DNA of 63,974 bases, the filler included, from assembly GCA_964501035.1 (NCBI GenBank). It is 7 parts of 7 records of this genome, joined end to end, with 100 filler letters (N's around TTAATTAATTAA, not from the genome) between each part and the next. Parts side by side here need not be neighbours in the genome. Positions count along the whole stretch, not along the records: positions 10,633 to 20,940 come from CAZCRK010000059.1; 6 more parts are not named here. One strand, 5' to 3'. The translations under genes were made by a program, and so were the position numbers. Shown piece after piece: positions 10,533-34,184 of this stretch. The notes beneath the pieces were generated by a model. The model worked only from the letters and a program-made list of their open reading frames with translations. It was not told the origin of the DNA and did not search any database. Position 1 is the stretch's first letter. Each line of letters begins with the position of its first letter.

Positions 10533-10632
10533 NNNNNNNNNNNNNNNNNNNNNNNNNNNNNNNNNNNNNNNNNNNNTTAATTAATTAANNNNNNNNNNNN
10601 NNNNNNNNNNNNNNNNNNNNNNNNNNNNNNNN
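10533..10632. other. Artificial contig spacer
   Basis: N44-TTAATTAATTAA-N44, stops in all six frames. Confidence 0.99.
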
Positions 10633-11613
10633 GTGGAAAACAGTATTGAGCCACATACAGGTGCAAAAATAATCAGCTTATATGGTAAGCATAAAATCCC
10701 ATCGAAAGAGGATATGCAAAATCTTGACATTCTTGTATTTGATATTCAAGATATTGGATCACGGTATTATACGTACATTAGCACTATGACAAACTGCATG
10801 TGGGCATCAGCTGAATATGGTATCCCATTTTTAGTTTTAGACAGACCCAATCCGATTAATGGAATTACGGTTAGTGGGCCAATACTAGAACCTGATTTTA
10901 GCTCATTTGTTGGGATGCATCCCATTCCAATTCGCCATGGGCTTACAGTTGGTGAGTTAGCTGTTATGATAAATGATAATCATTGGCATCATAAAACTAA
11001 ACCAGTAGATTTAACCATTGTGGGGTGTTTTAATTGGAAACGAAGTAATATTTCTCCTGACAATGCAACCGATTGGATTCCACCATCACCTAATATTCCC
11101 AATTTTGAAACTGCGTTAGCTTATGTCGGAACATGTTTACTTGAAGGAACAAATATAAGTGAAGGACGGGGAACTGATGCTCCTTTTTTAACTTTTGGCG
11201 CACCCTTTATTTTAAAAGAAGATACCCTTAAATTATTAAAATCACTTTCAGGAAATGGGTATGATATTGCACCATATTCGTTTATTCCAATTTCAATCGC
11301 AGGTAAATCAAAATATCCAAAATATAAGGATACATACTGTAACGGATTTCAAATTAATATTACTCAACCTCAAATGTTTGAACCATTTCAGCTTGGTATT
11401 AAAATTATTGATGTAATTCGCACAACCTATCCAGAAGATTTTGAATTTTTAGATACACATTTTATAGATAAGCTTATAGGTACAGATGAGTTTAGGTTGT
11501 TAATTAAGAATAATTCTAGTCTTCCCAAATTAATTGAATCATGGGATATTCAATCTGAAAATTTTATAGAATTTAGAAAACCTTATTTATTATACCCACT
11601 TGGAGAAAATTAA
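10633..11613 (+). CDS. namZ: Exo-beta-N-acetylmuramidase NamZ (DUF1343), 5'-truncated
   Basis: SLYG, FDIQDIGSRYYTY, LDRPNP, RHGLTVGELA, WIPPSPNIP, EGTNISEGRGT motifs. Confidence 0.9.
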   Translation: MENSIEPHTGAKIISLYGKHKIPSKEDMQNLDILVFDIQDIGSRYYTYISTMTNCMWASAEYGIPFLVLDRPNPINGITVSGPILEPDFSSFVGMHPIPIRHGLTVGELAVMINDNHWHHKTKPVDLTIVGCFNWKRSNISPDNATDWIPPSPNIPNFETALAYVGTCLLEGTNISEGRGTDAPFLTFGAPFILKEDTLKLLKSLSGNGYDIAPYSFIPISIAGKSKYPKYKDTYCNGFQINITQPQMFEPFQLGIKIIDVIRTTYPEDFEFLDTHFIDKLIGTDEFRLLIKNNSSLPKLIESWDIQSENFIEFRKPYLLYPLGEN

Positions 11614-13322
11614 TGGAAAATGTCACACAACTTGATTGGATTTTAATTGGAGTTTATACATTCTTTATGATTGGCGTTGGTTTAGTCATGAAGAAACGAG
11701 CAGACAAAGGGATTGAGCATTACTTTACGGGTGGTCGTGATATTCCGTGGTGGTTAGCAGGAATTTCAATGGTAGCAACAACATTTGCAGCCGATACTCC
11801 ACTTGCTGTTACAGGAATAGTTGCTTCTGACGGTATAGCAGGCAATTGGATATGGTGGAATTTTATGTTAAGTGGGATGTTCACGGTATTTTTATATGCT
11901 AAAATGTGGCATAGAGCCGGTGTTACAACGGATGTTGAATTTATTGAAATTCGTTATGGTGGTACGCCTGCAAAAATTTTGAGAGGATTTCGTGCTTTGT
12001 ATTTAGCATTCCCAATTAATTGTTTGATTCTAGGGTGGGTAACCGTTGGAATGGCAAAAGTGATAACGGTTGTAACAGGTGCTCCTCAATGGCAAGTTAT
12101 TTTACTTCTTTATGTCTTGACCACAATTTACATAGCAGTTTCGGGTATTTGGGGCGTGGTTGTAACAGATTTTATTCAGTTTTTTGTAGCTATGACTGGA
12201 TCTCTTATACTTATGTTCTATGCTGTTGACTTTGTGGGTGGAGTTCAAGGATTAAAAGATGGGTTATCACAATTGTTTGGTTCACAACATCATTACTTAG
12301 ATTTCTCACCAATTGGACATCCAACCATCCTTATAAGTACTGCACTTGTTTGGATTGGAATGCAATGGTGGGCATCGTGGTATCCTGGTGCAGAACCCGG
12401 TGGAGGAGGGTATATTGCTCAAAGGATGTTTTCTACACCCACAAATAAAGATGCCGTTAAATCTACATTGTTTTTTAATATTGCACATTATGCATTACGC
12501 CCATGGCCATGGATAATTGTTGCATTAGTATCCCTTATTGTTTTTCCTGATTTAGATGACCATGAAATTGGTTATCCATTACTGATGATAAAATTACTTC
12601 CATCTGGGTTGCTTGGCTTATTGTTAGTTGCATTTTTATCTGCATTTATGTCCACAGTGTCCACACATTTGAATTGGGGTGCTTCCTATGTAGTTAACGA
12701 CTTTTATGCTCGATTTCTTAAACCCAAATCAGAATTTTCATCAGAACAATCTGCACAATCTCATTATGTGTTCGTTTCCCGAATTGCAACAATCGTCATG
12801 ATGGGGAGTGCAATTACGGTATCCTACTTCTTTGATTCTGTTAAAGGAGGGTGGGAGTTCATGTTAAGTTTGGGTGCAGGTACTGGACTCGTTTATATGC
12901 TCCGATGGTATTGGTGGCGAATAAATGCATGGTCAGAAATTTCGGCAATGAGCATGGCTTTTATTGGTAGTTTGCTTGCAAAACCATTGGGCTTTACATC
13001 CTTTGACCAAAAAATGATATTCACAACTGTGTTAACCACTATTACATGGTTAATTGTAACATATTTAACCCAACCTGAAAAAGATGAGCTTTTGCAATCA
13101 TTTGTTAGCAAAGTGAAACCTGCAGGACCGGGATGGAAACATTTTTCTAATGGTGATTCAGTTTCGATTCTACCAAGCTTAGTTAATGTATGTTTGGGTA
13201 CAGTGGTAGTATTGAGTTTTCTATTTGGAATTGGTTCACTAATTTTATGGAATTTCATCTACGGGATTGGACTTATATTAGCGGGTTTAATTATTACTGC
13301 ATTACTACTAAAACGAATATAG
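11613..13322 (+). CDS. Sodium:solute symporter family transporter
   Basis: YFTGGRDIPWWLAGISMVATTFAADTP, YIAQRMFS, AFMSTVSTHLNWGASY motifs; many TM helices. Confidence 0.92.
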   Translation: MENVTQLDWILIGVYTFFMIGVGLVMKKRADKGIEHYFTGGRDIPWWLAGISMVATTFAADTPLAVTGIVASDGIAGNWIWWNFMLSGMFTVFLYAKMWHRAGVTTDVEFIEIRYGGTPAKILRGFRALYLAFPINCLILGWVTVGMAKVITVVTGAPQWQVILLLYVLTTIYIAVSGIWGVVVTDFIQFFVAMTGSLILMFYAVDFVGGVQGLKDGLSQLFGSQHHYLDFSPIGHPTILISTALVWIGMQWWASWYPGAEPGGGGYIAQRMFSTPTNKDAVKSTLFFNIAHYALRPWPWIIVALVSLIVFPDLDDHEIGYPLLMIKLLPSGLLGLLLVAFLSAFMSTVSTHLNWGASYVVNDFYARFLKPKSEFSSEQSAQSHYVFVSRIATIVMMGSAITVSYFFDSVKGGWEFMLSLGAGTGLVYMLRWYWWRINAWSEISAMSMAFIGSLLAKPLGFTSFDQKMIFTTVLTTITWLIVTYLTQPEKDELLQSFVSKVKPAGPGWKHFSNGDSVSILPSLVNVCLGTVVVLSFLFGIGSLILWNFIYGIGLILAGLIITALLLKRI

Positions 13323-13331
13323 AAAGAGTAT

Positions 13332-14678
13332 ATGAACCAACCTTATAGTAAAAAAACCATATTTTCATGGTCGATGTACGATTTTGCAAACCAACCATTT
13401 ACCACTCTTGTAGTAACATTTGTCTATGGTACATTTTTCACAAAAATGATTGCAGAGAATGAAATTGTTGGTACTGCACTTTGGTCGCGTGGTATTACAA
13501 TCACTGGAATTATTGTTGCAATATTATCACCTATTATGGGAGCAATTGCCGATAGAGGAGGATTTAGAAAATTATTTTTAATATTATGGACTTGGGCATC
13601 TGTTATTGGAAGTTTTATGTTATATTTTGTGCTTCCAGGTCAAGTAGGGTTAGCTTTAGTTTGGTTTGTTTTAGGAAATATTGGTTTTGAAATGGGTGGT
13701 GTGTTTTGCAATGCATACTTACCAGATATTGCTCCGAAAGAGAAAATAGGGCGTGTGTCTGGATATGGATGGTCATTTGGTTATGTTGGTGGGTTACTTG
13801 CCCTTGCGCTTGCTTGGTTATTTTTAATTAACCCTGAGGTTCCTGCTTTTGGCTTTTCAACGGAATTAGGTGAAAATATTAGAGCAACAAATTTGATGGT
13901 AGCTATTTGGTTTGCAGTTTTTAGTATTCCAACATTTTTGTTTGTCCGCGAAGGTAAACATAGGATAAGTGAAAAGGGTACTATTATTTCATCATCTTTT
14001 GGACAGTTAAAAACAACGTTTTCTGAAATCAGAAAGTATGATCAATTGGTGAAATTTTTGATAGCACGTTTATTTTACAATGATGGATTAATAACAATAT
14101 TTGCGTTTGGTGGTATATATGCAGCAGGCACATTTGGCTTTACATTTAATGAAATATTTATTTTTGGTATTGTTTTAAATATTACAGCTGGAATAGGTGC
14201 ATTTACTTTAGGATTTGTCGATGATATACTAGGCGGAAAACGTACAATCCAATTAAGTAATTATGGCTTGATAATTGCCTGTGTTATTGCAGTAATTGTT
14301 CCCAATCGCGATTTGTTTTTAATGCAGATGTTAGGAACTGAGTTACTTATAACCGGTAAGGGTATGTTTTGGTTAGCTGGAATAATGATTGGAATATTCT
14401 CAGGTCCCAATCAATCTGCAAGCCGTTCACTTATGGCACGATTTATTCCGAAAAATAAAGAAAATGAATTTTTCGGATTCTTTGCTTTTTCTGGTAAAGC
14501 TACTGCATTTATGGGACCCTTTTTGCTCGGTATTTGTACTGAATTGTTTGGTTCTCAACGGTTTGGAGTAGGAATTGTTGGCGTGTTTTTAATTATTGGA
14601 GCTATCCTGCTTAATAGAGTTAAAGAGACCGAAGGGATAGCCGTCGCTTCAAAAGAATCGCTATCAGTATCAATATAG
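13332..14678 (+). CDS. MFS transporter (UMF1/Atg22-like)
   Basis: SWSMYDFANQPF, GRVSGYGWSFGYVGG, QSASRSLMARF, EFFGFFA motifs. Confidence 0.9.
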   Translation: MNQPYSKKTIFSWSMYDFANQPFTTLVVTFVYGTFFTKMIAENEIVGTALWSRGITITGIIVAILSPIMGAIADRGGFRKLFLILWTWASVIGSFMLYFVLPGQVGLALVWFVLGNIGFEMGGVFCNAYLPDIAPKEKIGRVSGYGWSFGYVGGLLALALAWLFLINPEVPAFGFSTELGENIRATNLMVAIWFAVFSIPTFLFVREGKHRISEKGTIISSSFGQLKTTFSEIRKYDQLVKFLIARLFYNDGLITIFAFGGIYAAGTFGFTFNEIFIFGIVLNITAGIGAFTLGFVDDILGGKRTIQLSNYGLIIACVIAVIVPNRDLFLMQMLGTELLITGKGMFWLAGIMIGIFSGPNQSASRSLMARFIPKNKENEFFGFFAFSGKATAFMGPFLLGICTELFGSQRFGVGIVGVFLIIGAILLNRVKETEGIAVASKESLSVSI

Positions 14679-14848
14679 CGTAGTGTAAGTGCAGAATAAC
14701 GCAATATGTTGTGCTGTTTAACTAAAGTTAGTCCTCTTGTAATCTAATTACACTTACATCAATCACTTAATAAAATACTTTAAGTAATACTTGCATTGGA
14801 TTTACTTCAATATCTAAGTTATATCATTAATTAGAGTGGAGTTGTTAG

Positions 14849-15175
14849 TTGAAACAAATTTTTGGTTTCTTTATAATTATTTTACTTTTTGTCGCATTCA
14901 GCGCACGAAACATTGTTTACCCCGATTTAACTCAAGTAGTTGTAACCATTCCGGAATTAACTTCAATTGATACACAGAATTGTTTGGAAAAAGAGTTCGT
15001 AAAATTGGGTGGAGTAAAACATTGTGACACATCATTAAAAACAAAAACGCTTGTTCTAAAACTAGATGAACACAAAGTAGGAAAGAATGAGATTATAAAT
15101 GTTCTGCAAAAATGGGGATGTTCCTTTCAAAATATGTCCTTTTCTAAGTTAAATTTAGCACCTAATAAAGGATAG
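14849..15175 (+). CDS. Small exported protein, HMA-like fold without CxxC
   Basis: N-terminal hydrophobic segment; LGGV...SLKTKTLVL...EIINVLQKWG pattern; TTG start after GGAG. Confidence 0.6.
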   Translation: MKQIFGFFIIILLFVAFSARNIVYPDLTQVVVTIPELTSIDTQNCLEKEFVKLGGVKHCDTSLKTKTLVLKLDEHKVGKNEIINVLQKWGCSFQNMSFSKLNLAPNKG

Positions 15176-15180
15176 AAATT

Positions 15181-16224
15181 ATGAGATTCAAATTAACTCT
15201 AGTAGCAATCGCAGGGTTGCTAGTAATAACTTCGTGTACTAAAACTTATAATCCAAGATTGATTAATGATACACAGCTTACGTATGATGGTGATAATGGT
15301 GAAGCATATTTTTCATTTGATGGAACGAAATTGATTTTTCAATCCAAAAGAAATGGAAATGAATGTGACAAAATTTATACCATGAATGTTGATGGCACCG
15401 ATATGAAGCAAGTATCTACAAATGAAGGAGCACATACTTGCTCATATTGGTCTAAAGATGATGATTTTATTTTGTATTCATCTACAAAACACGATGGTGC
15501 TGATTGTCCATCTGTTTTTAAACCAAAAGATCCTACAAAGTATGTGTGGCCATTACGTAACTTCGACATATATAAAGCGAATCCTGATGGAAGCGACATC
15601 GTTCGTCTAACAAACAATAATTCCTATGATGCTGAGGCTACTGTGCACCCCACTGAAAATATGATTATTTATACCGCTTGGCAAAATGGTGATATTGATT
15701 TATATGAAATGGATTATGATGGAAAAAATATTAAACGAATTACAACTGAATATGGGTATGATGGAGCAGCCTACTATTCTCCAAATGGAAAGAAGATAGT
15801 ATGGCGTGCTTGGTATCCACAAACTACAGCGGATACACTTCAATGGCAAGCAAATATGAAAGGCAAATATATTGAGGCGGTACCACTTGATATTTATGTA
15901 GCTGATAGGGATGCAAGTAATAAGGTTCGTTTAACCAATAATGGTGCAACAAATTGGGCTCCTTCATGGCATCCAGATGGAAAACGAATTGTGTTTTCTT
16001 CCAATATGGATGATTGGAATGAGGAATATGACTCTTTTGGACATAACTTTGAGTTATACATCATTAATGTAGATGGCACAAACTTAACGCGTTTAACCAA
16101 TAATAATACATTTGATTCATTTCCTATGTTTTCACCAGATGGACAGAAATTAGTATATGGAACCAACAGAGGGTCTGATAATCCACGTCAAACCAATGTA
16201 TATATATCAGATTATATTGAATAG
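15181..16224 (+). CDS. TolB-like PD40-repeat lipoprotein
   Basis: Lipobox (ITSC); repeated SPDG/HPDG/SPNG-x-IV and RLTNN motifs. Confidence 0.88.
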   Translation: MRFKLTLVAIAGLLVITSCTKTYNPRLINDTQLTYDGDNGEAYFSFDGTKLIFQSKRNGNECDKIYTMNVDGTDMKQVSTNEGAHTCSYWSKDDDFILYSSTKHDGADCPSVFKPKDPTKYVWPLRNFDIYKANPDGSDIVRLTNNNSYDAEATVHPTENMIIYTAWQNGDIDLYEMDYDGKNIKRITTEYGYDGAAYYSPNGKKIVWRAWYPQTTADTLQWQANMKGKYIEAVPLDIYVADRDASNKVRLTNNGATNWAPSWHPDGKRIVFSSNMDDWNEEYDSFGHNFELYIINVDGTNLTRLTNNNTFDSFPMFSPDGQKLVYGTNRGSDNPRQTNVYISDYIE

Positions 16225-16241
16225 TAAGATATTAGATATAT

Positions 16242-16274
16242 AAAAAAAGCCCAGTATTTCTCTGGGCTTCTTTT
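16242..16274. terminator. Bidirectional intrinsic terminator
   Basis: A-run, AGCCCAG/CTGGGCT stem, T-rich tail, between convergent genes. Confidence 0.75.
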
Positions 16275-16291
16275 ATCTTAATTACAATATT

Positions 16292-17851
16292 TTAGAATAC
16301 TCGACTTCTATAGTCTTCAATTTCAATATTCTTTTTTTCATGAGAGAGCCATGTATTAAAAACTTTAGAATTTTTACCATTTAGCAATTCAATCCTAAGT
16401 GCTTCAGCTTCTTCTTCAAATTTTGTTTCATCTAATTCATCTTTAGAAACCATATTGATTTTTACAATACTGCTAAAAGTTTCAATTATACTTGAAATAT
16501 CTTTTGCTTGCATAGCTTTTAAGGTGCCAGTCAATGCATTACTTTTACCTATTGCTGTAAAACTACCACCTATGTTTTTGGTATCATTTTTAACATACTC
16601 AACAAAATCAGTTGAACTAGCATATGATTCCCATTCAGTTGGATTAGATGGTACAGATTCCATAATTGTTAAAGCATGGTCTGTTTTCTTTTCTTTGAGT
16701 AATGTTCGCTTAATTCCACTTTCAACCTGTGCCATATCTTTGTAACCTGCTGGTGTATAGCCAATTATGTGAAATACAGCAATTCCATTATCCATTGTAA
16801 TGGGGTCAGAGACATCACCAATTGAATTATCAAATGCAAATCGTACGGCTTGACGAGAAACACCCAAGTTGAATGGAATTCCAGAATTATTTGCAAATCC
16901 TTCAACAATATTGAGAGTGTCTTGTACTTTAATCTCAAACATTTCGATAGCTTCAGTGAAACTTGAATAGTCGGCTTCATCTACAAATAGAAGAGAGTTT
17001 TGCATAATTGAATCTTGGATTGTTGAAATATTTAAAGAATCAACATCGTCAGATTTTGGATATTCCCAGTACACATACTCTACAACTTGACTTTCATCAG
17101 TTGTATATAACTCATCCTTATCTTCATTGTATTTTGCTAAAATTTCATCATCATTCACTTCTACCAAAGAGTCTGGAATACTATTCGAATTAATATGTAG
17201 AAAATCAATTGTGCAATTCACATTTCGTTTAGTATACTCTTCTTTCACTTCAATATCTGAAACAGATGCAGTATTATTATACAGACTTCGTAGTTTTCTA
17301 TCTGCCAAATATGTACGTAAATAGTTTTCCCATAAAACCAGTAAAGAAGAAAGTTCTTCCGGAAGCAAACCATTTTTAACAGCCTCTTGATATGTTGGCA
17401 TATCAAATGATTCATCATCATTAATGAAAAATCCAGCTGACTTTAAATTTTCTTGAAATGCACTTGGTGGTGTAAGTAAAAGAAAATCATAAATTTCATC
17501 ATTTTCAACAGTTAAGCCAAGTTCTTCAATTTTTTTATCTTTAATTACACGTTCGACAATTGTATTCCAAGCAAAATCACTTGCATTTTGGTATGCACGG
17601 CTATCTAGCTTTCTATCTTGGTTTCGATATTGATTCAATTGACGTTCTCGTTCATTGATAAAACGTTGTCGAGGAATCTCAGAGTCTCCAACCTTTCCAA
17701 TATACAGACTTGTGTTTGTACGTCCCATAATAATATCCATTATATTTGCACCACCAACCAGTCCACCTACTACCATACTGAGTAAGAAAAACGTTAACAA
17801 TATCCATAAAACAATATGAGATCTCTCTCTAATTTGTGTCATATTAAACAC
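16292..17851 (-). CDS. ppiD: PpiD/SurA_N-domain periplasmic chaperone
   Basis: MTQIRE plus TM anchor, IGKVGDSEI, LGLTVENDEI, YNEDKDELY, C-terminal IEDYR. Confidence 0.75.
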   Translation of the reverse strand: MFNMTQIRERSHIVLWILLTFFLLSMVVGGLVGGANIMDIIMGRTNTSLYIGKVGDSEIPRQRFINERERQLNQYRNQDRKLDSRAYQNASDFAWNTIVERVIKDKKIEELGLTVENDEIYDFLLLTPPSAFQENLKSAGFFINDDESFDMPTYQEAVKNGLLPEELSSLLVLWENYLRTYLADRKLRSLYNNTASVSDIEVKEEYTKRNVNCTIDFLHINSNSIPDSLVEVNDDEILAKYNEDKDELYTTDESQVVEYVYWEYPKSDDVDSLNISTIQDSIMQNSLLFVDEADYSSFTEAIEMFEIKVQDTLNIVEGFANNSGIPFNLGVSRQAVRFAFDNSIGDVSDPITMDNGIAVFHIIGYTPAGYKDMAQVESGIKRTLLKEKKTDHALTIMESVPSNPTEWESYASSTDFVEYVKNDTKNIGGSFTAIGKSNALTGTLKAMQAKDISSIIETFSSIVKINMVSKDELDETKFEEEAEALRIELLNGKNSKVFNTWLSHEKKNIEIEDYRSRVF

Positions 17852-17902
17852 AGCAATTCTCCAAATTTAATTATAGTTATGTGAAGGAAAAACTCCTTCG
17901 GG

Positions 17903-17975
<73 letters not shown>

Positions 17976-17991
17976 GAAAATATAAGCACCA

Positions 17992-18020
17992 AATTTATTT
18001 TTTTTAGAGGGTATTGTCAA
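17992..18020 (-). promoter_or_regulatory. Sigma70-type promoter of tRNA-Ala
   Basis: TTGACA-17 nt-TAAATT on the minus strand, just upstream of the tRNA. Confidence 0.7.
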
Positions 18021-18096
18021 AGTAAAAACCACAATAATAAAATAATAAATTTCTAAAAGGATTGAATAAGATGAATTATTTCTGATAAATTTAAGG

Positions 18097-18594
18097 ATGA
18101 AATTACCTGTAAAACAGATAATTATCCTCATAAGCATATCTACTTTGTTAGGATTTTTGCGTTTTCTTTTACTAGATAATCCAGATTTTACTCTTATAAA
18201 AATTGAACGAGAGTTAAAAACAGGTTTAATGGAGAAATATGCAGATTTTGAAATACCTGATATGTTAACCGAACCTATGTTAGTTAATTCTGAAATTGCA
18301 TTTAATTTATACTCAACCAATAGAGCATTGTTAATTGATGCACGAGATAATGAAGAATTTCAAATTAAACACATCAAAAATGCTATTAATATTCCTTATG
18401 ATTATTATGAAGAGTATCAAAATGTCATAGATAGTTTAGATATGGATTTTGCATATATCGTGTACTGCAGTGGGGGAGAATGTAGTTTGAGTTTGGATTT
18501 AGCAGACTATCTATTTGAGTATGGATTTTTTAATATGTTTGTATATGAGGGTGGTTTGCCTGAATGGGAAGAAAACGGATATCCAGTCGAATGA
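18097..18594 (+). CDS. Membrane-anchored rhodanese-domain protein
   Basis: LIDAR..EF...HIKNAINIP, active-site loop YCSGGECSLS, YEGGLPEW...GYPVE. Confidence 0.9.
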   Translation: MKLPVKQIIILISISTLLGFLRFLLLDNPDFTLIKIERELKTGLMEKYADFEIPDMLTEPMLVNSEIAFNLYSTNRALLIDARDNEEFQIKHIKNAINIPYDYYEEYQNVIDSLDMDFAYIVYCSGGECSLSLDLADYLFEYGFFNMFVYEGGLPEWEENGYPVE

Positions 18595-19043
18595 AGGCAC
18601 TATTTCAACACAAACATTATGTATTGTTATCACGTTTTATTCTTGGAGTCATTTTGATTTGGGCAAGCGTATATAAAATTGAAGACCCAGTAGCATTTGC
18701 CAAAATTGTTCATAACTACCATGTGTTTCCTGTGTTTTTAGAAAACCTCATTGCATTAATTGTACCGTGGTTAGAATTGATTCTTGGTGTCTGTTTATTA
18801 TTTGGGGTATTTTTGGACGGTGTATCTTACCTTTCAATTGCCATATTTATCTTATTTATTGTCATTTTATCACAAGCATATTTAAGAGGGATTGATTTAC
18901 ATTGTGGGTGTTTTTCATCAGATGTATCAGGCAAAGTTAATGATTTAAGAGCAGATATGCTAAAACGAATTTTGGAAGATATTGTATATTTAGGATGTGC
19001 AATAATAATCAAATATAGAAGTTGGTTTTTAAGGGATGTATGA
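18591..19043 (+). CDS. MauE/DoxX-family redox-associated membrane protein
   Basis: RFILG...KIEDP..FA, PWLELILG, RGIDLHCGCF. Start reassigned to ATG 18591, which overlaps the upstream TGA. Confidence 0.9.
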   Translation: MKALFQHKHYVLLSRFILGVILIWASVYKIEDPVAFAKIVHNYHVFPVFLENLIALIVPWLELILGVCLLFGVFLDGVSYLSIAIFILFIVILSQAYLRGIDLHCGCFSSDVSGKVNDLRADMLKRILEDIVYLGCAIIIKYRSWFLRDV

Positions 19044-20173
19044 GAAAAATTAGTTATTTATTTTTGTGTTTGTTTTTACTAAATACTGCACAAGCTAAAG
19101 ACGGAATTGTAAATTATTTTAAATTGTTTGGTTCTACCAATGTTCATGGTGAAACCGAACCGTGTGGCTGAAAAAAGAAACCTTTGGGCGGTCTTGCCCG
19201 AAAAGCTACCATTATTGATGAAGCCAGAAAAGATGGCTCTGAAGTGGTCATTGTTGATGCTGGTAATCTATTCTTCAAAAAAGAAAACATACCACCCGGT
19301 GTTACAACAGAAATAGCAAAAATAAGTGCAAATACAATTGTTGAATCTTTCAATATTATTGGTTGTGATGCATTTTCACCTGGATCCAAAGATTTTGCTG
19401 GTGGGTTGAAATTCTTAAAAGAATTGGAAGCTAAATCAGATTTTCCGTTTGTATCTTCGAATATTTTGGATACAAATAATACCAATATTTTTGACTCATA
19501 TACTATTGTTTCTAAAGGTGGGATATCAGCAGGATTTATTGGCGCGTCATCTATTTTCTCACATGCTGATTTAAATGTAAGTGAACCTATTGAAGCGATA
19601 GCGAATTCTGTACAAGCATTGACAGGAAATGTAGATATGATTATTTTACTTTTTGATGCCACTGAACAGGATATGAGACGGTTATACGAAAAGAAGTTAA
19701 ACATTGATTTAATTTTAAGAAGCAAATCCAAAAAACGATCCAGAGATGGAGGAAGCAAAATTCCAACATATACTGCAGGTGATAGAGGAAAGTACTTGTA
19801 TCAGTTTGATGTGCAAATGAAAACTAGTGGACAGAAATTTACTGATTTATCCGCATTTAAAAATAAACGAGATCATGCACATAAACGATTGAATTCGATG
19901 CGAAAAGGAAACCTTATGGTTGATTTACGTGAAATGTATGCAGATGATGTGACAACCATAAAAAAGATTGAGAATTATGAACGTCAAATTGATATTGCAG
20001 AACGTACATTATCAGATGCTATTAATACTATTAAATTTACAAAACATGAGCTAGGTAAAAAGATAATTGACAGACCAGATGTTTTGTTAATAGTAGATTC
20101 TGGAAAGCATAAAATTGCTGAAATTTCTACACCGCAATTACCACCGCATAATCATAAAAACCATTCGCATTAA
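19040..20173 (+). CDS. UshA/5'-nucleotidase-fold-like selenoprotein (377 aa; Sec at codon 44, TGA 19169-19171)
   Basis: ATG 19040 gives MRKISYLFLCLFLLNTAQA (signal) ...STNVHGETEPCG-TGA-KKKPLGGLARKAT, in frame with ORF 19184..20173; SECIS-like hairpin follows. Confidence 0.87.
19183..19202 (+). promoter_or_regulatory. Putative bacterial SECIS element
   Basis: TTTGGGCG-GTCT-TGCCCGAA stem-loop; apical loop starts with G, 20 nt after the UGA. Confidence 0.7.
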
Positions 20174-20265
20174 TTTTAGTAATTTAATTAAAAAATGTGT
20201 TGGTATAAGTAGAATTAAATTTCTAAAATATGCTCCGCCGAGAGGCGAGGTTTTTATATAAGATT

Positions 20266-20338
20266 GCGAAAGTAGCTCAGCTGGTAGAGCATCACGTTGC
20301 CAACGTGAGGGTCGTCGGTTCGAATCCGATCTTTCGCT
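20266..20338 (+). tRNA. tRNA-Gly(GCC)
   Basis: Anticodon arm TCACG-TTGCCAA-CGTGA; T-arm GGTTCGAATCC. Confidence 0.97.
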
Positions 20339-20340
20339 CT

Positions 20341-20366
20341 ACGGTCTCTGCGGAGACCGTTTTTTT
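20341..20366 (+). terminator. Terminator-like hairpin between tRNA-Gly and tRNA-Cys
   Basis: ACGGTCTC-TGCG-GAGACCGT followed by T6. Confidence 0.65.
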
Positions 20367-20367
20367 A

Positions 20368-20439
20368 GGCGTCGTAGCCAAGTGGTAAGGCACCGGTTTG
20401 CAAAACCGCTATTCACCAGTTCGAATCTGGTCGACGCCT
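20368..20439 (+). tRNA. tRNA-Cys(GCA)
   Basis: GGCGTCG acceptor stem; anticodon loop TTGCAAA; one C.C mismatch at the top of the anticodon stem. Confidence 0.95.
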
Positions 20440-20477
20440 CTTAAAAGTGACAAGTAATCTATAGTCACTATTTTTTT

Positions 20478-20562
20478 GCCGAGGTGGCGAAATTGGTAGA
20501 CGCAAGAGACTTAAAATCTCTCGGTACTATGTACCGTGCCGGTTCGATTCCGGCCCTCGGTA
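20478..20562 (+). tRNA. tRNA-Leu(TAA)
   Basis: AGAGA-CTTAAAA-TCTCT anticodon arm, long variable arm; classic Gly-Cys-Leu cluster. Confidence 0.97.
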
Positions 20563-20565
20563 CAC

Positions 20566-20585
20566 AAACCCTCATTTGAGGGTTT
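20566..20585. terminator. Hairpin terminator after the tRNA cluster
   Basis: AAACCCTC-ATTT-GAGGGTTT between convergent units. Confidence 0.65.
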
Positions 20586-20586
20586 G

Positions 20587-20940
20587 TTATTTTATAGGTA
20601 TCATTATTTGAACTTCTAAGCCAGGGCGATGAGATTTGAACGTGATGTCTCCATTATGTTTATTTACGATCCAATTACAAATTGATAAACCTAAACCAGA
20701 CCCAGATGTAGAGTTTTCTATATTATGAGATCTAAAAAATCTACTAGTTAACAATTCAAGTTCATTATCTGAAACTCCGGTTCCGTAATCACGAATAGAA
20801 ACCAAAGCCATTTCATTATGAATAGTAACTACAATTTTTATAATGTTGTTTTCAAAGCTGAATTTGATAGCATTATCAATGATATTTCTAAACAATATGT
20901 TTAACCAATTTTTATCACCCATACATGAAATTGAATCTAT
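20587..20940 (-). CDS. Sensor histidine kinase, C-terminal HATPase_c fragment (5' part lost at contig end)
   Basis: N-box NIIDNAIKF, G1 DYGTG, F-box RFFR, G2 GSGLGLSIC. Confidence 0.88.
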   Translation of the reverse strand: MDSISCMGDKNWLNILFRNIIDNAIKFSFENNIIKIVVTIHNEMALVSIRDYGTGVSDNELELLTSRFFRSHNIENSTSGSGLGLSICNWIVNKHNGDITFKSHRPGLEVQIMIPIK

Positions 20941-21040
20941 NNNNNNNNNNNNNNNNNNNNNNNNNNNNNNNNNNNNNNNNNNNNTTAATTAATTAANNNN
21001 NNNNNNNNNNNNNNNNNNNNNNNNNNNNNNNNNNNNNNNN
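20941..21040. other. Artificial contig spacer
   Basis: N44-TTAATTAATTAA-N44. Confidence 0.99.
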
Positions 21041-33770: not shown

Positions 33771-34126
33771 GGGGGCGCCTTGGTTTCGACGGGTAAAACC
33801 AGTTATCTTGTTGCATGTGGAGGATCTCCTTGGTCACCTCCTTAATCAACTAAGGAAAAACGATAAATGCCGATTATGGCTACGCTGCTGCCGCTTAATT
33901 GACGACAGCTATCTCTTAACGGGCGCGTCTGCCTCCAGTTAATGAGGTATCATTCATTGCAGACTGCTCCATTTTTTTGTCTGAGAAAAATGGCTAAGAC
34001 TTTCAGACTGGTTCAATTCTGTGTGCGGTCGTTCGCATAGCTTGAATAAGATTCAAGAATGACCTAAACATGTAGATACAGTTTAATTGCTTTATTCGGA
34101 CGGCGGTTCGATTCCGCCCGCCTCCA
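33771..34126 (+). ncRNA. ssrA: tmRNA; tag (A)ADYGYAAAA at 33869-33898
   Basis: 5' GGGGGCG...GGTTTCGACGG, 3' GGTTCGATTCC...CGCCTCCA with G3.U pair; tag ORF follows ATAAAT. Confidence 0.96.
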
Positions 34127-34184
34127 CTATATTTAGACAAATCAGTCATCTTTCTTGGTTAGTGTACTAAATTTGTTTGAAATT

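Follow-up and report, generated by a model that had tools for sequence, protein, structure and literature searches.

A predicted exported selenoprotein of the UshA-like CxU type, in a short form encoded beside rhodanese and MauE genes, in a marine Marinimicrobia bacterium

UshA-like proteins with a CxU motif, in which a Cys and a selenocysteine (Sec) are separated by one residue, have been in print since the Global Ocean Sampling (GOS) marine survey (PLoS Genet 2008, PMC2398784). Passages of that paper report, under 'COG0737, UshA-like', 76 selenoprotein sequences from 20 samples together with 92 Cys homologues, and name the family as one of three major families outside those with Cys-based redox motifs. 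Entries in two reviews (PMC13188914 and PMC9312934) list the UshA-like family with NF041198 or COG0737. Here we describe a further member of this selenoprotein type, encoded at positions 19040-20173 on the plus strand of a 63,974-nucleotide stretch of DNA from assembly GCA_964501035.1 (the whole of which is called the window below). Comparison with related sequences indicates that these positions make up a single gene, whose product is a 377-residue exported selenoprotein with an in-frame UGA read as Sec.

The window consists of seven contigs of one metagenome-assembled genome (MAG). At each join a 12-base spacer is flanked on both sides by 44 N; the joins lie at 10533-10632, at 20941-21040 and at four more places. 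Because it is made of joined contigs, arguments from gene neighbourhood are valid only inside 10633-20940. The source organism is an uncultured marine Marinimicrobia (SAR406) bacterium known only as a MAG, and its genome (G000) comprises 1.87 Mb in 167 contigs, is 95.7% complete and carries the gene on contig C59. A set of 61 genomes from the order of the source organism, with G000 among them, was searched with the NCBIfam model NF041198, and 30 loci drawn from the matches (L016 and L019-L047) were read in detail. A wider set of 80 loci came from a pattern scan with one genome per species; most belong to 'Candidatus Neomarinimicrobiota/Marinimicrobia', and the distant ones to Myxococcota, Thermodesulfobacteriota, Alphaproteobacteria and Bdellovibrionota. 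The 30-locus and 80-locus sets share species and are therefore not independent. The protein alignment holds 28 full-length sequences, namely the window protein and 27 orthologues at 33-72% identity.

From the ATG at 19040 to the TAA at 20171-20173 runs one frame of 377 codons with a single TGA, at 19169-19171. The table-11 list of open reading frames (ORFs) holds just TTG 19184 to 20173 (329 residues) in this place; a preliminary description, made from the sequence alone, had carried the frame back to the ATG through that TGA, and its coordinates all hold. The features of the gene are as follows.

19040-20173, plus strand: putative UshA-like selenoprotein gene, short form, 377 residues, Sec at residue 44 (U44); from the frame, the NF041198 match, the orthologue alignment and the 5'-nucleotidase N-domain fold.
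19040-19099, plus strand: probable N-terminal export signal (MRKISYLFLCLFLLNTAQA, followed by KD), cleavage site placed by eye.
19169-19171, plus strand: UGA predicted to be read as Sec, U44, in the motif P41-C42-G43-U44; from the TGA column in relatives and the agreement of contigs from three sequencing runs.
19183-19202, plus strand: predicted selenocysteine insertion sequence (SECIS) hairpin, stem of nucleotides 15-22 with 27-34, loop G23 U24 C25 U26 (U of the UGA is nucleotide 1); from folding and covariation.
20141-20170, plus strand: His-rich C-terminal tail, PPHNHKNHSH, at the place where long forms of the family have a tetrahaem domain.

The read-through product contains U44 within ETEPCGUKKKPLGGLARKA, which agrees with the reading EPCG-U-KKKPLGGLAR put forward earlier. 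The signal peptide said to be gained by the extension is likewise supported: the N-terminus is hydrophobic in all 28 aligned proteins, and the residues encoded by 19040-19099 probably form the export signal, a judgement made by eye and not with a predictor. Two members of family f5 (L029 and L031) have a lipobox-like LLWGC or LAWGC at this end. At the other end, 20 of the 28 short forms have at least three His among their last 16 residues. The ATG at 19040 overlaps the TGA stop of the upstream ORF (18564-19043) as ATGA, an overlap typical of coupled genes. Two orthologues depart from the usual length: that of L036 (genome G060) looks shortened, with a TAA after 267 codons, and that of L037 (G047) has a second TGA after 349 codons, ahead of the usual C-terminus; both are possibly pseudogenes, assembly errors or shorter variants.

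NF041198 gave a strong match (111-217 bits) in 54 of the 61 genomes (55 matches, one genome having two copies), and in the other seven it gave only weak matches, to other 5'-nucleotidase relatives. In 53 of the 54 matching genomes a TGA interrupts a frame that is otherwise open over about 380-400 codons; the exception is G044, with none. At the P-C-G-U column, 29 of the 30 loci read in detail have TGA and L031 (from G044) has TGC; in the wider scan the same column is TGA in 79 of 80 loci and TGC in L117. The best 150 representatives from a library of 1.84 billion proteins divide into 29 with PCGC, 10 with PCGW (TGA called as Trp) and 111 without the motif under the pattern used, many of the latter being fragments or starting after the TGA. 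Since distant representatives read PCGC or PCGW, this column is a Sec/Cys column, and the expectation that homologues would have Cys or TGA here is borne out. The 120 relatives listed from a 90%-clustered database comprise 61 full-length entries with PCGW and 59 whose start lies beyond the TGA; none was found with PCGC. The 43 codons 5' of the TGA are conserved at the protein level, with N34, G37, E38, P41, C42 and G43 invariant in the 28 aligned sequences; these six, position 44 (U or C) and structural Gly and Asp residues are also invariant across 16 long and short forms. The preliminary description had further asked whether the TGA would hold in sequence data, and the contigs of three public runs from three studies (X1, X2 and X3) cover 19169-19171 with no difference there, X1 and X2 possibly being one data set filed twice, or the source sample. 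Among the runs listed as containing this stretch none was of RNA.

These data bear on another explanation, that the TGA is a true stop and that the locus is a pseudogene or yields a product from TTG 19184, its upstream frame being open by chance. Gene callers give the same model, as do the 59 listed relatives that start after the TGA, and TGA does stop three of the 28 long ORFs of the window as well as the two upstream genes. Conservation of the 43 upstream codons as protein, across families and with invariant residues, is contrary to this explanation, as is the fact that these codons carry the sole export signal. So are the Cys at the TGA column in L031, in L117 and in the 29 distant representatives, and the hairpin described below, which covaries, is missing from the Cys forms and has the mis-called start, TTG 19184 (Leu49), within its 5' arm. 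We consider a true stop highly improbable, and already contradicted by the comparative sequence data.

The Sec machinery that the preliminary description expected elsewhere in the genome was found. Genes selA (523 bits) and selB (375 bits) adjoin on contig C6, selD (379 bits) lies on C13 and tRNA-Sec (65.8 bits, anticodon TCA, also called as tRNA-SeC by ARAGORN) on C2, all scoring above the curated cut-offs. A second way to dispense with Sec would be to read TGA as a standard amino acid, Trp or Gly, under code 4 or 25. The 61 database entries with PCGW could be taken in this sense, and some pipelines applied such a code to short contigs. However, table 11 leaves selA, selB and the other long matches open, the full Sec machinery is present together with a tRNA-Sec whose anticodon is TCA, and the homologous residue is Cys, not Trp. 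Moreover, TGA also terminates ordinary genes (three of the 28 long window ORFs, both upstream genes and several genes at orthologous loci), which excludes another genetic code. Reassignment of TGA is thus already contradicted, and we give it next to no credence. The selD gene of this genome (G000:C13:7047-7973, locus L006) is itself a selenoprotein gene, with one in-frame TGA in GAG-U-ACK; the hairpin after that TGA has a different loop from that of the UshA-like gene and so offers no shared-loop argument.

In Escherichia coli, the SECIS comprises an upper stem-loop 11 nucleotides from the UGA, at nucleotides 15-31, with G23 and U24 in the apical loop, according to a passage of PMC8659212. The hairpin of the window gene resembles that of E. 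coli fdhF in its spacer (nucleotides 4-14), in a stem that starts at nucleotides 15-16 and in the presence of G23 and U24 in the loop. It had been placed, with a GUCU loop, 20 nucleotides downstream of the UGA; the hairpin is real and the distance is right for the loop (~20 nucleotides), whereas the stem itself begins 11 nucleotides after the UGA.

Comparison among genomes gives the hairpin its main support. Across the 29 TGA loci, the two sides of the stem pair in 94.6% of cells; sliding the 3' partner by 1-3 columns lowers this to 36-60%, and none of 500 shuffles matches the observed pairing or covariation score, figures that are inflated by the kinship of the sequences and are not probabilities. 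Positions 16 and 33 pair in every one of these loci, as U-A in 14 and as C-G in 15, and the changes on both sides are synonymous (Leu49 TTG/CTG, Arg54 CGA/CGG); the window gene and its congener L026 differ at this pair. In the short-form TGA loci, which encode P-[LM]-G-G-L-A-R, the same pair is formed in 58 of 58 (33 C-G, 23 U-A and 2 A-U), and parsimony requires at least eight switches on a tree. The sequence GGUCU occupies nucleotides 22-26 in 78 of 80 TGA loci, and under a uniform rule that allows either register at least five consecutive pairs close the loop in 73 of 80 loci and three or four in the other seven. Long forms keep the GGUCU loop on a stem of 5-6 base pairs, with the register shifted by one nucleotide and the encoded residues LSKK or LSRR versus LARK. 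A pair count over the 80 loci in one register only, poor at 18-31 and 21-28, was superseded on account of this shift. The hairpin is absent from both Cys forms, L031 and L117.

Three results speak against the hairpin. Folding of 71 nucleotides of the single sequence gave z = -1.25, with 30 of 200 shuffles folding equally well, and because the lone fold is no better than chance the case for a SECIS rests on the comparison with other genomes. An Rfam scan of 19000-19400, with E up to 10, returned chance-level matches and no SECIS family, a null result that says little since the bacterial SECIS models of Rfam are lineage-specific. Finally, U17 is bulged in E. coli fdhF but is predicted here to form a U-G pair with G32; this U is invariant in 29 of 29 loci. 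With its compensatory synonymous changes and E. coli-type geometry, the hairpin fits the bacterial SECIS model as first suggested, and we conclude that 19183-19202 most probably directs Sec decoding of the UGA at 19169-19171.

The best NCBIfam match of the window protein is NF041198, 'UshA-like (seleno)protein' (UshA_like_PCGU), with an E-value of 1.7e-60 and 205.1 bits over profile positions 5-386 of 519. The cut-off of this model is 275 bits, so that the match falls short of it, a point against the family assignment, and the cut-off was reached in 0 of the 61 genomes of the order. It is passed by five long forms (L102, L126, L110, L111 and the Cys form L117), which score 301-563 bits. Among 18 distant loci read, 15 encode exactly four CXXCH motifs in a C-terminal Cytochrome_C554-type domain (PF13435); examples of long forms, within L100-L126, are L102:2974-4545 and L126:3001-4557. 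The tetrahaem domain corresponds to approximately positions 395-519 of the profile, and that it forms part of the NF041198 definition is our reading of the profile coverage, not a statement of NCBI text. The window protein, which ends at profile position 386, contains no CXXCH, and the tetrahaem domain is absent from the Marinimicrobia proteins; it is for want of this domain that the short form stays below the cut-off. The window protein is a short-form relative of NF041198 and not a member by the NCBI threshold. Its earlier assignment to a UshA-like CxU/CxC (seleno)protein type stands in this sense, NF041198 being the best match and a CxU UshA-like family being in print. Small stand-alone proteins of 200-250 residues in Marinimicrobia genomes match the profile at about 398-516.

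A Pfam scan of the read-through protein gave no domain above noise, including neither Metallophos (PF00149) nor 5_nucleotid_C (PF02872), and the UshA and CpdB family models match it weakly (35-44 bits). Profile alignment to solved 5'-nucleotidases reached E-values of 1e-15 to 1e-21. An AlphaFold2 model, with an overall predicted local distance difference test (pLDDT) score of 86.2, was matched by Foldseek to YfkN, UshA and CD73 at E ~1e-17, with probability 1.00 and a template modelling (TM) score of ~0.6; among solved chains, the match covers the N-domain-only fragment 3gve most completely (TM 0.69 by target length). The protein is accordingly modelled with the fold of the N-terminal metallophosphoesterase domain, a calcineurin-like alpha/beta sandwich, of UshA-type 5'-nucleotidases.

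In 5'-nucleotidases the metal-ligand motifs I-V are DxH, GD, GNH[ED], H and GH. At these places the window protein has N34-x-H36, G-N/D76, G-S-K-D, D206 and S-K229, and of seven metal-ligand or catalytic positions, six have been replaced or are unconserved in the 28 aligned short forms, as listed here.

Motif I Asp: replaced by Asn34 in all 28.
Motif I His: retained in 20 of 28.
Bridging Asp: N in 18 and D in 10 of 28.
Motif III Asn-His: S/E/A/P, then K/Q/N, in 28 of 28.
Position of UshA Asp120: A/S/T.
Motif IV His: D/N/H/S.
Motif V His: K/R in 25 of 28.

The preliminary description had recognized motif I in TNVHG; the place is right, but the motif is degenerate, as its metal-binding Asp is replaced by Asn34. 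GCDAF, considered as the replacement of GNHEF in motif III, was ruled out by the profile alignment, in which GCDAF matches GYDAM and motif III is G115-S-K-D-F. With its metal ligands replaced, the protein is not a conventional metallophosphoesterase. One could still suppose a UshA-like phosphoesterase or nucleotidase in which Sec is merely accessory or regulatory near the active site, given the 5'-nucleotidase N-domain fold, the weak UshA and CpdB matches and the public annotation of truncated relatives as 2',3'-cyclic-nucleotide 2'-phosphodiesterase. The replacement or variation of six of the seven positions, the lack of a Pfam Metallophos match and of the C-terminal nucleotide-binding domain, and the location of the strongest conservation in the CGU loop, not in the phosphoesterase motifs, make this quite improbable in our view.

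Two genes lie immediately upstream of the selenoprotein gene.

18564-19043, plus strand: MauE/DoxX-family membrane protein, 159 residues, HCGCF motif (PF07291, E 2.7e-24).
18097-18594, plus strand: rhodanese-domain protein, 165 residues, N-terminal membrane anchor, loop C124-S-G-G-E-C129 (PF00581, E 6.3e-17).

The order rhodanese, MauE, selenoprotein is found in 28 of the 30 loci and is missing in L029 and L031 of family f5. Rhodanese and MauE are fused in eight of these 28 loci (L022, L023, L025, L032, L039, L041, L043 and L047), as an ORF of 356-408 residues with an extra membrane span between the parts, and are separate, overlapping genes in the window and 19 other loci. In the unfused rhodanese proteins C124, G126 and C129 are invariant (20 of 20 aligned), and the C-G-C motif of MauE is present in all 27 loci, out of 28, for which the frame was recovered. 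The positive-inside rule, applied by eye, suggests that both the rhodanese domain and the C-G-C loop of MauE face the periplasm, the compartment to which the selenoprotein would be exported.

Other genes were noted around the locus. A SurA-like chaperone/peptidyl-prolyl isomerase gene lies divergently upstream (16292-17851, minus strand), and a SurA-like gene adjoins the selenoprotein gene in the f5 genomes of L088 and L092, both of which lack rhodanese and MauE; the latter two genes thus look like an insertion, or a loss, between conserved neighbours. L091, from a record titled as a Chloroflexota MAG, has the SurA-like, rhodanese, MauE and short-form selenoprotein genes, of Marinimicrobia type and at 36% identity, and either mis-binning of the contig or transfer of the operon could explain this. 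A tRNA-Ala-GGC gene (17901-17975, minus strand) lies upstream of the rhodanese gene, and a tRNA cluster (Gly-GCC, Cys-GCA, Leu-TAA; 20266-20563) lies directly 3' of the selenoprotein gene, its tRNA-Leu giving a sub-threshold match to the tRNA-Sec model (38.6 bits). Elsewhere in the window, a tmRNA gene at 33771-34127 encodes the unusual tag peptide ADYGYAAAA.

Taken together, the locus is best explained as encoding an exported Sec protein, the short form of the known UshA-like CxU family, with an inferred redox role, and we consider this explanation likely. For the mechanism we hypothesize that the protein, having neither the dimetal ligands and catalytic His of the 5'-nucleotidases nor their nucleotide-binding C-domain, no longer hydrolyses phosphate esters. 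Its functional centre would be the invariant loop N34-x2-G37-E38-x2-P41-C42-G43-U44, with the CGU part acting as a periplasmic Cys/Sec redox site (through a selenenylsulfide) or as a chalcogen-transfer site. In the long forms, the fused tetrahaem c-type cytochrome would wire this site to the electron-transport chain, while in Marinimicrobia the short form would rely instead on the rhodanese (C-x4-C) and MauE/DoxX (C-G-C) proteins, presumably co-transcribed with it and facing the periplasm. On balance we lean towards this combination of lost hydrolysis, a redox or chalcogen-transfer centre in the CGU loop and a cytochrome or rhodanese-MauE relay. As for the substrate, our guess would be a chemical species of sulfur or selenium, for example a persulfide, polysulfide or thiosulfate.

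The main competing proposal is metal or metalloid handling, in which the C42-G-U44 loop, together with N34 and E38, would bind a thiophilic metal or metalloid (for example Cu, Ni, Zn, Hg, As, or Se/Te oxyanions) and the His-rich tail would capture or deliver the ion. The protein would then serve in the periplasm to bind or detoxify the metal, or as a metal-dependent redox protein, its metallophosphoesterase site having been remodelled. Metal handling would account for the tail in 20 of the 28 short forms, for the invariance of N34, E38, C42 and U44 at the former metal site and for the His retained at motifs I, IV or V in some members, and redox chemistry at a bound metal or metalloid would go well with the tetrahaem domain fused in the long forms. 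On the other hand, eight of the 28 short forms have no such tail, nor do the long forms. The neighbours of the locus in the window, and those of the 25 distant loci scanned, include no gene for metal transport or resistance, and rhodanese and MauE are thiol- or sulfur-handling families. We regard metal handling as rather unlikely.

For the redox or chalcogen-transfer function, too, there is evidence on the other side. The functional reading depends on gene context and residue loss. Beside the long forms lie mainly housekeeping genes (TsaD, RsmA, MgsA, M23 peptidase, DHH phosphoesterase), which offer no hint of sulfur metabolism, and the f5 short forms L029, L031, L088 and L092 have neither a cytochrome domain nor an upstream rhodanese and MauE, so that a relay partner is not obligatory. 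The His-rich tail suggests metal binding more than pure thiol chemistry, and with His kept at motifs I, IV or V in some members a residual metal site is possible. In the AlphaFold2 model, loop 43-49 has a pLDDT below 50, which makes the modelled position of Sec relative to the vestigial metal site unreliable.

Carried further, the redox function leads to a more speculative proposal, which we put forward only tentatively. The invariant loop, carried by a 5'-nucleotidase scaffold now devoid of its dimetal site, might be a new selenium-based catalytic centre, possibly with a single metal, for periplasmic redox chemistry on sulfur, selenium or metalloid species. Evolution might have connected this centre with the electron-transport chain in two interchangeable ways: the long forms of Desulfobacterota, Myxococcota and Alphaproteobacteria would use their fused tetrahaem cytochrome c, and SAR406/Marinimicrobia a membrane thiol relay of rhodanese and MauE/DoxX. 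If this were true, the ocean interior would harbour, in abundance, a respiratory or detoxifying enzyme that has so far gone unrecognised.

The UshA-like family has been listed with the major marine selenoproteins since 2008, without a proposed function, and the loss of metal ligands, the tetrahaem fusion, the rhodanese-MauE/DoxX operon and the His tail now lead to a testable redox hypothesis for an abundant ocean lineage. What appears new is the short form below the cut-off and without the tetrahaem domain, the replacement of the metal ligands and the rhodanese-MauE/DoxX context; in the literature on UshA-like selenoproteins we found no description of a split into short and long forms, of the tetrahaem fusion, of the metal-ligand loss or of the operon, a provisional statement with supplements and subscription papers outside its scope. 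Mis-annotation of the family is systematic: among the 120 relatives listed, those starting after the UGA and those reading Trp lose or mistranslate the signal peptide and the sole invariant motif, and truncated entries receive the misleading name 'phosphodiesterase'. Knowledge of Sec decoding itself is unchanged by this gene.

With respect to the described systems, the UshA-like CxU family of the GOS survey is very probably the same protein type as the product of the window gene, being marine, UshA-like and CxU; the passages of that paper on the family give no domain architecture, SECIS analysis, operon or function. A further UshA-like selenoprotein family, NF049981 ('UshA-like (seleno)protein family 2'), appears in a passage of a 2026 review; the window protein scores 36.7 bits against its cut-off of 140, and the motif of that family is CxxU, not CxU. 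SoxB (TIGR04486) belongs to the same 5'-nucleotidase superfamily and acts on sulfur compounds in the periplasm, and its model is matched weakly by relatives of the window protein (L117 at 66, L126 at 49 and L029 at 43 bits, cut-off 550). SoxB has no Sec and retains a dimanganese site. The NF041198 long forms share with the window protein the UshA-like N-domain, the invariant N-x2-G-E-x2-P-C-G-U/C and the position of the GGUCU-loop SECIS. They differ in their C-terminal tetrahaem domain, where the window protein ends in the His-rich tail, and no rhodanese or MauE gene was seen beside those long forms whose neighbours were scanned. E. coli UshA, human CD73 and Bacillus subtilis YfkN (PDB 1ush, 1hp1, 4h1s and 3gve) have the same N-domain fold and are all exported; compared with them, the window protein lacks the dimetal ligands, the catalytic His and the C-terminal nucleotide-binding domain, and has Cys-Gly-Sec in the loop after motif I.

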